64,000 bases of DNA from the sequence record OZ317122.1, one strand, 5' to 3'. Made by a program: the position numbers and the translations under genes. Below, in pieces: positions 37,132-37,886 of the stretch. The DNA comes from a phage. The notes beneath the pieces were generated by a model. That model had not been told where the DNA came from. It ran no database searches and saw only the letters and a program-made list of their open reading frames with translations. Position 1 is the first letter of the stretch; each line of letters opens with the position of its first letter.

Positions 37132-37207
37132 CTGGTCGAGGCAGTAGGGATCGAACCTACGACCCAGGACTTAGAAGGTCCTTGCTCTTCCTTCTGAGCT
37201 ATGCCTC
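37132..37207 (-). tRNA. tRNA-Arg (anticodon TCT)
   Basis: Cloverleaf: acceptor CGAGGCA/TGCCTCG, anticodon loop CTTCTAA, T-arm GTAGGTTCGATCCCTAC, CCA encoded. Confidence 0.85.
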
Positions 37208-37211
37208 GTAT

Positions 37212-37286
37212 TTGGCGGACGTGATAGGATTCGAACCTATAACCAATCGCTTAACAGGCGATCGCTCTGCCATTGAGCTACACATC
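37212..37286 (-). tRNA. tRNA-Asn (anticodon GTT)
   Basis: D-stem GCTC/GAGC, anticodon stem ATCGC/GCGAT with loop CTGTTAA, T-arm ATAGGTTCGAATCCTAT, CCA encoded. Confidence 0.8.
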
Positions 37287-37290
37287 CAAA

Positions 37291-37377
37291 TTGGTGGGGA
37301 GTGGTGGAGTCGAACCACCCGAGTCGCAATGACAATGGATTTACAGTCCACACCGCTACCTCTACGGGATAACTCCC
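37291..37377 (-). tRNA. tRNA-Tyr (anticodon GTA), long variable arm
   Basis: Anticodon stem GTGGA/TCCAT with loop CTGTAAA; T-arm GGTGGTTCGACTCCACC; 87 nt; D-arm pairing less clean. Confidence 0.7.
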
Positions 37378-37387
37378 CAAATTAATT

Positions 37388-37462
37388 TGGTGGCCCTGGG
37401 TGGAATTGAACCACCATCTGGCGATTATGAGTCGCTTGCTTGAACCTTCCAGCTACAGGGCC
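37388..37462 (-). tRNA. tRNA with CAT anticodon (Met or lysidine-type Ile, as T4 tRNA-Ile)
   Basis: Anticodon loop CTCATAA; T-arm GGTGGTTCAATTCCACC; CCA encoded. Confidence 0.8.
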
Positions 37463-37463
37463 T

Positions 37464-37539
37464 TGGTGCTGATTGACGGAATCGAACCGCCGACCTTCTC
37501 ATTACAAGTGAGTTGCTCTACCTACTGAGCTAAATCAGC
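37464..37539 (-). tRNA. tRNA-Thr (anticodon TGT)
   Basis: D-arm TAGCTCAGTAGGTAGAGC, anticodon loop CTTGTAA, T-arm GGCGGTTCGATTCCGTC. Confidence 0.85.
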
Positions 37540-37544
37540 AAAAC

Positions 37545-37634
37545 TGGCGGAGGCGATAGGATTTGAACCTATGAGTCGCCGGAGCGACTGCCGGTTTTCA
37601 AGACCGGTGCATTAAACCACTCTGCCACGCCTCC
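37545..37634 (-). tRNA. tRNA-Ser (anticodon TGA), long variable arm
   Basis: Anticodon stem CCGGT/ACCGG with loop CTTGAAA; long variable arm; T-arm ATAGGTTCAAATCCTAT. Confidence 0.85.
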
Positions 37635-37636
37635 AG

Positions 37637-37710
37637 TCTCCGTGGCAGGATTTGAACCTACGACATTCTGCTCCCAAAGCAGACGCTCTACCAAACTGAG
37701 CTACACGAAG
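37637..37710 (-). tRNA. tRNA-Pro (anticodon TGG), 3' CCA not encoded
   Basis: Anticodon loop TTGGGAG; acceptor CTTCGTG/CACGGAG; only 2 nt separate it from tRNA-Ser. Confidence 0.8.
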
Positions 37711-37720
37711 TAAATTAAAT

Positions 37721-37794
37721 TGGAGCGGATAATGAGAATCGAACTCACATCATCAGATTGGAAGTCTGAGGTAATACCATTATACGATATCCGC
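37721..37794 (-). tRNA. tRNA-Gly (anticodon TCC)
   Basis: Anticodon loop CTTCCAA; T-arm GTGAGTTCGATTCTCAT; acceptor GCGGATA/TATCCGC. Confidence 0.85.
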
Positions 37795-37799
37795 AAATT

Positions 37800-37886
37800 T
37801 GGTGCGAGAAGTGGGACTCGAACCCACAAGGAAATCATTCCGCAGCATTTTAAGTGCTGTGCCTTTACCAATTTGACCATTCTCGC
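37800..37886 (-). tRNA. tRNA-Leu (anticodon TAA), long variable arm
   Basis: Anticodon stem CAGCA/TGCTG with loop CTTAAAA; T-arm GTGGGTTCGAGTCCCAC. Confidence 0.85.

Follow-up and report, generated by a model that had tools for sequence, protein, structure and literature searches.

In the 64-kb window (the whole 64,000-nt stretch of phage DNA analysed here) ARAGORN detected nine tRNA genes and no others, all on the minus strand and together spanning positions 37133–37886. The same nine scored above the gathering score of the Rfam family RF00005, eight of them with 59–74 bits (E 1e-10 to 1e-14), and ARAGORN drew a cloverleaf for each of the nine. In operon order they are tRNA-Leu(UAA) (37800–37886, anticodon taa), tRNA-Gly(UCC) (37721–37794, tcc; 85% identity with E. 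coli glyT), tRNA-Pro(UGG) (37636–37710, tgg; the 3′ CCA is not encoded), tRNA-Ser(UGA) (37545–37634, tga; with a long variable arm), tRNA-Thr(UGU) (37464–37539, tgt), a tRNA with a CAT anticodon (37388–37462), tRNA-Tyr(GUA) of the phage type (37292–37378, gta), tRNA-Asn(GUU) (37213–37287, gtt) and tRNA-Arg(UCU) (37133–37208, tct). A gene for an HNH endonuclease precedes this series, and two stable RNA genes and a terminator-like hairpin follow it, all on the same strand. An earlier sequence-only reading had listed nine minus-strand tRNAs with these anticodons; both programs bear out the set, and ARAGORN assigns the same anticodons throughout.

Downstream of tRNA-Arg we found homologues of the T4 stable RNA genes rnaD (species 2; 37012–37128, minus strand, 84.7% identity over 118 nt) and rnaC (species 1; 36867–37005, minus strand, 98.6% identity over 139 nt). 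They are followed by a terminator-like hairpin at 36793–36816 (minus strand; a 10-bp stem with seven G-C pairs and then TTTTT) that probably ends the tRNA operon. A promoter scan of the region returned 15 sites against 12.1 ± 3.9 in shuffled sequence, i.e., no excess. By analogy with T4, transcription would yield a single precursor, which enzymes of the host would then process. Collinear blastn alignments with T4, VEc74 and Ozark identify it as the T-even tRNA operon by map position (between e.8/rnaC/rnaD and trna.2-4/ipI/57B/gene 1), gene order and nucleotide identity. The window belongs to Tequatrovirus, the region being 97–99% identical to many sequenced coliphages.

The annotation of T4 (RefSeq NC_000866) reads Gln, Leu, Gly, Pro, Ser, Thr, Ile, segB, Arg, rnaD, rnaC, so that the T4 tRNA set given in the sequence-only reading was correct. 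No tRNA-Gln was found by ARAGORN in the 64-kb window. Homology to T4 resumes at position 38508, and T4 nucleotides 3961–4024, which correspond to tRNA-Gln, are replaced by a free-standing HNH endonuclease gene (37893–38501, minus strand, 609 nt, 202 aa). Alignment with the Gln-Leu junctions of T4, T2 and T6 places this ORF exactly where these phages have tRNA-Gln, as had been proposed from the letters alone, and reveals a remnant of the lost gene, its first 7 nt (TGGGAAT, 38508–38514, minus strand). The HNH gene has overwritten tRNA-Gln, leaving only these nucleotides. The protein matches phrog_14736 “HNH endonuclease” (E 5e-124) as well as ten other HNH PHROGs, and its translation contains the CxxC...DH...N...CxxCH motif; the Pfam HNH score was 17.3 bits, below the cutoff of 21.4, and a PDB sequence search and an NCBIfam scan gave only chance-level or domain-level matches. 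At ≥95% identity the gene occurs in 64 phage records; within Tequatrovirus it is 95–100% conserved, and the next relatives are at about 35%. It is absent from T4, T2, T6, KIT03 and the metagenomic IMG/VR locus L010, each of which has tRNA-Gln at that position, while tRNA-Gln is missing from all four HNH-positive arrays examined. Following the precedent of SegB, the putative homing enzyme would cleave intact tRNA-Gln genes in rival phages and insert a copy of itself, a target read solely from the gene that it replaced. Since CAA is enriched just 1.8-fold in the window, Gln appears to be the cheapest reader of A-ending codons to lose.

The second difference from T4 lies at the other end of the array, where positions 37179–37442 of the window replace T4 segB, which in T4 sits at the Tyr-Asn position, between Ile and Arg alleles other than the window's. 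The tRNA with the CAT anticodon is a T2-type allele, 100% identical to that of T2 and only 63–65% identical to T4 tRNA-Ile. Its anticodon stem-loop (GCGACTCATAATCGC) is identical to that of E. coli ileX (77% identity overall), its acceptor begins with GGCCC, and the identical gene of phage Ozark is annotated as tRNA-Ile2-CAT in RefSeq. It is best read as an ileX-like tRNA-Ile2, putatively of the lysidine type that reads AUA, and not as a Met type. Similarly, tRNA-Arg is 100% identical to that of T2, but shares only 51% identity with the tRNA-Arg of T4 and T6. The genes for Tyr, Asn and the alternative Arg in T-even phages that lack segB were described in 2008, together with the preferred 27-bp site of SegB, located inside the tRNA-Asn gene of T2L, and the exclusion of the Met-Tyr-Asn-Arg region by SegB homing (Brok-Volchanskaya et al., 2008, PMC2330249). 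The tRNA-Asn of the window is 100% identical to that of T2 and carries this published preferred target.

Other arrays of the genus combine the same elements differently. That of T2 (AP018813) reads Gln, Leu, Gly, Pro, Ser, an ORF, Met, Tyr, Asn and Arg, and that of T6 Gln, Leu, Gly, Thr, Met, Tyr, segB and Arg. Ozark has the HNH gene and ten tRNAs, His included; KIT03 has a segB-like gene in the Pro slot; pSe_SNUABM_01 has the HNH gene, an ORF and segB with only six tRNAs; and L010 (Gln, Leu, Gly, Pro, Ser, Thr, Ile2, Tyr, Asn, His, Arg) has no endonuclease gene. The frequencies given here are record counts from a phage collection (tRNA-Asn, for instance, has matches in 352 phage records), and the cross-tabulation of array types covers about ten genomes plus these counts; an IMG/VR survey using an exact 28-nt pattern from tRNA-Leu returned only three loci, one of them L010, too few for statistics. 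The sequence-only reading had taken Tyr and Asn as additions to the T4 set. This does not hold, as T2 has both and T6 has Tyr. As the alignments show, what sets the window apart from T4 is cassette replacement by homing endonuclease genes, not the gain of tRNAs, and it is T4 that represents the derived state, segB apparently having overwritten its Tyr and Asn genes. Relative to the fullest arrays, with eleven tRNAs, the window also lacks His. We considered that His was lost, in comparison with Ozark, by recombination at identical His and Asn 3′ ends, suggested by a 34-nt blastn overlap, but this idea is unsupported, the two tRNAs being only 56% identical.

The integrity of the tRNA-Tyr gene deserves separate treatment. 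It has the weakest RF00005 score of the nine (30.3 bits, the cutoff being 29), a C-C mismatch in the D stem, and an identical counterpart in VEc74 that is flagged as pseudo in that record, all of which could be taken to mean that it is a decaying pseudogene and the apparent extra tRNA non-functional. We regard this as extremely improbable. The cloverleaf is intact, with a discriminator A and an encoded CCA, and the D-stem mismatch is common to all six aligned phage copies. In the alignment, 92.7% of cells pair, compared with 46–60% when the partners are slid, and seven pairs show compensatory changes; these affect the anticodon, T and acceptor stems and are seen between phage families. Matches were found in 610 phage records, near full-length in 608 of them. 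The gene is 100% identical to the copies of Ozark and VEc74, 97.7% to those of T2 and of an rV5-like phage, 78% to that of T5 and 62% to E. coli tyrT. From the tRNA-Tyr of T6, which is expressed and rescues infection (PMC13096335), it differs at a single anticodon-stem position (86/87 identical, 98.9%). The pseudogene idea was dropped on the strength of the covariation and of this near-identity to a functional gene, and it can be regarded as effectively refuted. The gene has the GUA anticodon, the intact fold and the enlarged phage-type variable loop (exceeding that of the host by 2 nt) that characterize the tRNA-Tyr genes known to counter PtuAB-type nucleases, and its variable arm plus T arm (TTGTCATTGCGACTCGGGTGGTTCGACTCCA) is identical to that of T5 tRNA-Tyr.

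What demand these tRNAs might serve was assessed by comparing the 87 ORFs of the window with an E. coli sample of 35 genes, all located in a single 50-kb region where highly expressed genes are abundant. Against this sample, the most enriched amino acids were Asn (1.82-fold), Lys (1.62-fold) and Tyr (1.54-fold), in that order. Among codons, AGA was enriched 12-fold, ATA 5.7-fold, TCA 4.3-fold, GGA 3.6-fold, ACA 3.3-fold and TTA 2.9-fold, and those read by the seven classical tRNAs were 1.7- to 12-fold enriched; AAT and TAT were enriched 4.3-fold and 2.4-fold. In this AT-rich genome, the array would add to the host's tRNA supply, serving A-ending codons and a heavy demand for Asn and Tyr. Plain demand explains the presence of Asn and Tyr equally well as a protective function does. 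One could go further and regard supply and demand as the whole explanation, all nine tRNAs merely tuning the pool with no anti-nuclease role, and the ranks of Asn and Tyr and the enriched codons of the classical seven are what this predicts. We consider it possible but somewhat unlikely. Although Lys ranks second in enrichment, the window encodes no tRNA-Lys; His is under-represented (0.77×), and yet relatives have a tRNA-His gene; the same tRNA-Tyr allele is found in unrelated phage families; and there is experimental evidence for another role of tRNA-Tyr in T6.

This evidence concerns Septu, which is countered by the tRNA-Tyr of T6 (Chihara et al., 2026, PMC13096335). A T6 mutant devoid of the tRNA region shows increased sensitivity to Septu, infection can be rescued by overexpressing the tRNA-Tyr of T6, and T4, which has no tRNA-Tyr, cannot escape; T2 is resistant, the cause not having been dissected in that study (PMC13096335). 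Septu and retron-Eco7 are PtuAB-type nucleases that cut tRNA-Tyr in its variable loop (PMC13096335, PMC12673091). Retron-Eco7 is countered by the tRNA-Tyr of T5 (Azam, 2024, PMC11555353), and the phage variable loop is required for this inhibition in the tRNA-Tyr of T5 and SP15 (Ishikawa, 2025, PMC12673091). Septu EcB88 cleaves T6 tRNA-Tyr too (PMC13096335), and therefore protection in that case depends on dosage. By analogy with these near-identical genes, the tRNA-Tyr of the window may keep translation going when PtuAB-type nucleases destroy the host tRNA-Tyr, and a phage with the T2-like Ile2-Tyr-Asn-Arg block is predicted to share the Septu resistance of T2 and not to behave like T4. The sequence-only reading had suggested that the extra tRNAs replenish species destroyed by nucleases rather than only adjusting codon usage. 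The published experiments with T6 and T5 support the first half of this statement for Tyr, whereas the second half is not established for Asn, for which demand fits. The counter-defence role of phage tRNA-Tyr is itself already published (2024–2026).

Colicin E5, a bacteriocin, targets Tyr, His, Asn and Asp tRNAs, and it was to enzymes of this type that the two extra tRNAs had been linked. Tyr, Asn and His all have GUN anticodons, and under such an explanation Tyr and Asn, joined by His in relatives, would replenish the queuosine-family tRNAs cut by E5-type anticodon nucleases. The window has two of the four target species and its relatives three, since the optional tRNAs of Tequatrovirus are precisely Tyr, Asn and His. 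We consider the explanation quite improbable all the same, as tRNA-Asp was not seen in any Tequatrovirus array examined, the phage copies keep the GUN anticodon and hence would not be intrinsically resistant, and the papers drawn on here describe no E5-type phage defence. The documented nucleases are different ones, PtuAB for Tyr and, as a candidate for Asn, AriB of PARIS; the link to colicin E5 found no support. According to a preprint, AriB cuts Lys, Thr and Asn tRNAs between nt 40 and 41, within the anticodon stem (motif U36-A-A-U-C|A41, as given there), Asn being a secondary target, and T4 needs the tRNA-Lys of T5 to escape PARIS. This is the sole defence link for Asn. ARAGORN found no tRNA-Lys in the 64-kb window, and with only Thr(UGU) and Asn(GUU) present the main set of AriB targets is incomplete. 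At the AriB site the Thr tRNA has UAAUG|A (UAAUC|A in E. coli thrU) and the Asn tRNA UAAGC|G (UAAUC|C in the host). As both tRNAs differ from their host counterparts throughout and tRNA-Lys is missing, these substitutions do not point specifically to PARIS evasion. A defence role for tRNA-Asn, e.g., against AriB, is plausible but unproven.

Taken together, the locus is very probably a T2-like form of the standard Tequatrovirus tRNA operon, shaped by replacements of endonuclease cassettes, supplementing the host tRNA pool and, as we infer from the related genes, providing counter-defence through Tyr. A bolder proposal is that the Tyr-Asn-(His) block is a mobile counter-defence module with multiple targets, and that tRNA-targeting endonuclease genes set which defences can be evaded by overwriting tRNA slots; we offer this only as a speculation that is more likely wrong than right. 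The Tyr allele with the identical variable arm is common to T-even, rV5-like, Karam-like and T5-like phages. The slot-overwriting genes would be segB in T4 and T6, the segB-like gene of KIT03 and, with presumed homing into Gln, the HNH gene described here. As a discovery the array carries little weight, the gene set, the alleles of phages without segB and the anti-defence role of Tyr being already known. It is an example of tRNA genes being erased and exchanged by selfish endonuclease genes, and it has a practical use in that the type of tRNA array predicts phenotype, the phage of the window being expected to show the T2-like phenotype.

Among the closest known systems is VEc74 (MT932213), which has the same nine tRNAs and the 609-nt HNH ORF (99.0% identity over 1817 nt) but not the 157-aa ORF found in the window downstream of rnaC. 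The exact configuration is in GenBank already, and close variants are found in many phages; Ozark differs by an extra tRNA-His between Asn and Arg. With T4 the window shares the Leu-Gly-Pro-Ser-Thr block (about 95% identical) and the flanking trna.2-4, 57B, gene 1, rnaC and rnaD, whereas T4 has Gln and segB, lacks Tyr and Asn and carries other alleles of Ile and Arg. T2 and T2L, which lack segB, have the same gene order and genome-map position as the window, and Ile2(CAT), Tyr, Asn and Arg that are 100%, 97.7%, 100% and 100% identical. However, tRNA-Gln is retained in T2, where one ORF takes the place of tRNA-Thr and another lies directly after Arg; in the window, the HNH gene stands in for Gln, Thr is retained, and Arg is followed by rnaD and rnaC. 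A distant relative of the HNH protein is HegA of T5 (T5.075; 35% identity over 170 aa, E 7e-22), likewise encoded by a free-standing HNH-type endonuclease gene among tRNA genes. As for tRNA-Tyr, the T6 anti-Septu system belongs to the same operon and phage genus, with the nearly identical gene described above, but T6 has segB beside Tyr, whereas in the window Asn follows Tyr. With no adjacent segB, the published route of SegB-driven tandem amplification would be unavailable in cis. The tRNA-Tyr of T5 and SP15 has a variable arm, whose loop is required for the inhibition of retron-Eco7, and a T arm identical to those of the window, although T5 belongs to another phage family, expresses the gene from its own strong promoter and differs in the acceptor, D and anticodon stems.

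Nine minus-strand tRNA genes (37133–37886) were found by ARAGORN in the 64-kb window and by the Rfam tRNA model, both giving the coordinates and anticodons of the sequence-only reading, and this call is far beyond chance. Read in the direction of transcription, the genes are Leu(UAA), Gly(UCC), Pro(UGG), Ser(UGA), Thr(UGU), a CAT-anticodon tRNA, Tyr(GUA), Asn(GUU) and Arg(UCU). All scored above the Rfam gathering score, eight at 59–74 bits and Tyr at 30.3 bits. A cloverleaf could be drawn for every gene and the 3' CCA is encoded in eight of the nine; tRNA-Pro (37636–37710), the only one lacking it, must rely on the host CCA-adding enzyme. 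The CAT-anticodon tRNA is best read from its sequence as an AUA-reading Ile2 type: it has the same anticodon stem-loop (GCGACTCATAATCGC) as E. coli ileX and, like ileX, an acceptor stem beginning with GGCCC (77% identity overall), and the identical gene of phage Ozark is named tRNA-Ile2-CAT in RefSeq.

Downstream of tRNA-Arg are homologues of rnaD (37012–37128) and rnaC (36867–37005), the species 2 and species 1 stable RNAs of T4, followed by a strong terminator-like hairpin (36793–36816). Just beyond lies a minus-strand ORF of 157 aa (36269–36742; phrog_2280, function unknown), found in Ozark and KIT03 and missing from T4 and VEc74. This ORF lies between two nearly identical copies of the hairpin (36793–36816 and 36238–36261; AGCCCCGACC(G/A)AAAGGTTGGGGCTTTTT). 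Its N-terminus, MKSYTQFLNEA, resembles the start, MKTYQEFIAE, of a 77-aa ORF (39547–39780) in the region of ipI (internal virion protein). Such a start we take to be the T4 capsid-targeting sequence, so the 157-aa product may be packaged and injected.

The RefSeq T4 array is Gln, Leu, Gly, Pro, Ser, Thr, Ile, segB (a homing endonuclease gene), Arg, rnaD and rnaC, the tRNA set being the one given in the sequence-only reading. In a collinear blastn comparison, window positions 37443–37889 (from the 5' portion of the CAT tRNA to Leu) were 95% identical to T4, and 36784–37178 (the rnaC and rnaD homologues plus the 3' end of Arg) 89% identical. The intervening 37179–37442 (Asn and Tyr together with the greater part of the Arg and CAT tRNAs) is without a T4 counterpart and stands at the position of T4 segB, and 37890–38507, containing an HNH ORF, stands at that of T4 tRNA-Gln. 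The absence of Gln, with an HNH gene in its place, is thus borne out. The upstream flank is common to T4, T2 and T6 through the first 7 nt of tRNA-Gln (TGGGAAT, 38508–38514), after which comes the HNH ORF (37893–38501, ATG at 38501), and homology picks up again just before tRNA-Leu. The 202-aa product has a full-length match to phrog_14736 “HNH endonuclease” (E 5e-124) and shows the motif CxxC...DH...N...CxxCH, although its match to Pfam HNH is sub-threshold. The gene is 95–100% conserved inside Tequatrovirus and its next relatives are at ~35%; identity to hegA, an HNH endonuclease gene of the T5 tRNA region, is 35%. The sequences give hints that this lineage may generally be tied to phage tRNA clusters; some distant relatives lie next to tRNA genes or overlap them in Gordonia phage Sixama and Salmonella phages Arash and MET_P1_137_112.

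Tyr and Asn had been proposed as additions to the T4 set. However, T2 (Gln Leu Gly Pro Ser, an ORF, Met Tyr Asn Arg) has both, and T6 (Gln Leu Gly Thr Met Tyr segB Arg) has Tyr. The preferred 27-bp site of SegB was mapped within the tRNA-Asn gene of T2L, and SegB homing excludes a ~1250-bp T2L segment with Met, Tyr, Asn and Arg; tRNA-Tyr, tRNA-Asn and an isoacceptor tRNA-Arg have been known in T2L, RB1 and RB3 since that 2008 work (PMC2330249). As the window tRNA-Asn is identical to that of T2, the absence of Tyr and Asn from T4 is a derived, endonuclease-driven state, i.e., the direction is one of loss in T4. By analogy with SegB and tRNA-Asn, we infer that the HNH enzyme would target intact tRNA-Gln genes; Gln is absent from all four HNH-positive arrays examined. 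The CAT and Arg(UCU) tRNAs of the window (37388–37462 and 37133–37208) are 100% identical to those of T2, whereas T4 has different alleles (63–65% and 51% identity). The T6 pair shows these same low identities, and the two segB carriers have this other allele pair in common, which indicates that the segB cassette moves together with flanking tRNA genes of its own.

Other arrays vary further. Ozark has the HNH gene and ten tRNAs, with His between Asn and Arg; the Pro slot of KIT03 holds a segB-like gene; pSe_SNUABM_01 has only six tRNAs, with the HNH gene, an ORF and a segB-like gene; and one IMG/VR contig (L010) contains all eleven (Gln Leu Gly Pro Ser Thr Met Tyr Asn His Arg) without any endonuclease gene. 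The phage collection yielded 610 records matching tRNA-Tyr, 352 tRNA-Asn, 433 the T4-type tRNA-Gln, 345 tRNA-His, 183 segB (126 near full length) and 64 the HNH gene. The window lacks the tRNA-His(GUG) and the ~114-nt Asn–Arg spacer seen in Ozark, KIT03 and L010 (compared with L003 3484–3677), its Arg–Asn gap being only 4 nt (37209–37212); no repeat accounting for such a deletion was found. The tRNAs that come and go among the Tequatrovirus arrays compared (window, L003, L010 and L017) are Tyr, Asn and His, all with the GUN anticodons of queuosine-family tRNAs; Asp(GUC) was not encountered in these four.

We aligned the tRNA-Tyr of the window, T2, T6, an rV5-like phage, an Enterobacter T4-like phage, T5 and E. 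coli. All six phage copies share a D-stem C-C mismatch (nt 12 and 24), which is probably the reason for the marginal Rfam score and for the marking of the gene as pseudo in GenBank's VEc74 entry. A pseudogene was nevertheless rejected: 92.7% of cells pair (46–60% with partners slid), both partners are changed in seven pairs, and the T6 gene is identical at 86 of 87 positions. The window copy (37292–37378) is 97.7% identical to that of the rV5-like Vequintavirus (L012 2501–2587), both differences together making one compensatory base pair, 92% to that of the 175-kb Enterobacter phage (L018 1501–1588) and 78% to that of T5 (L006 13341–13428). The 31 nt of the variable and T arms (TTGTCATTGCGACTCGGGTGGTTCGACTCCA) are the same in the window and T5, the rest of the molecule having diverged, and also in the rV5-like and Enterobacter copies, i.e., in unrelated phage groups. 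This points to horizontal transfer or to strong selection shared by these phages on that half. The Enterobacter phage has Tyr, Lys, Asn, Gln and His side by side.

The sequence-only reading suggested that Tyr and Asn may replenish species depleted by nucleases. For Tyr the idea stands and is already published: Septu EcB88 (PtuAB) cuts tRNA-Tyr in the variable loop, T6 is rescued by its own overexpressed tRNA-Tyr, is more sensitive when its tRNA region is deleted and escapes through SegB-driven tandem amplification of tRNA-Tyr, while T4, with segB and without tRNA-Tyr, cannot escape and T2 is resistant (PMC13096335). Retron-Eco7, with the same effector type, is evaded by T5-like phages via their own tRNA-Tyr (PMC11555353), which needs the phage variable loop (PMC12673091). 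No support was found for the selective agent being a nuclease of the colicin E5 type. The sole defence link found for Asn was PARIS. AriB cuts between nt 40 and 41 in Lys(UUU), Thr(UGU) and, less strongly, Asn(GUU), and is neutralised by T5 Lys, Thr and Asn variants together, T5 tRNA-Lys alone sufficing for T4 (bioRxiv 10.1101/2025.02.04.636281). The window has no tRNA-Lys; at the AriB-site motif its Thr and Asn depart from the host versions, as would be expected anyway. Codon and amino-acid demand by itself also explains both tRNAs. In 87 non-overlapping window ORFs, compared with 35 E. coli K-12 genes, the most enriched amino acids were Asn (1.82-fold), Lys (1.62-fold) and Tyr (1.54-fold), with AAT enriched 4.3-fold and TAT 2.4-fold, and the codons read by the seven classical tRNAs were enriched 1.7- to 12-fold. 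CAA reached only 1.8-fold, with Gln overall at 0.75, making tRNA-Gln the least costly loss; His stood at 0.77. However, demand alone leaves unexplained the tRNA-His of the relatives and the lack of tRNA-Lys. Defence and demand probably both act on tRNA-Tyr, and for tRNA-Asn demand is better supported than defence.

The tRNA region matched 1007 phage records, the best being Tequatrovirus genomes at 97–99% identity (Ozark, phiD1, teqhad, VEc74 and others), and the surrounding 24 kb was 98–99% identical to KarlGJung, UTI-E4, PYps15T and others. In its annotation VEc74 has precisely this set of nine tRNAs, with the same 609-nt ORF upstream of tRNA-Leu, so this precise configuration was already in GenBank. 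The locus is an ordinary Tequatrovirus tRNA operon of the T2 type, annotated before now, and homing endonuclease cassettes have shaped it.
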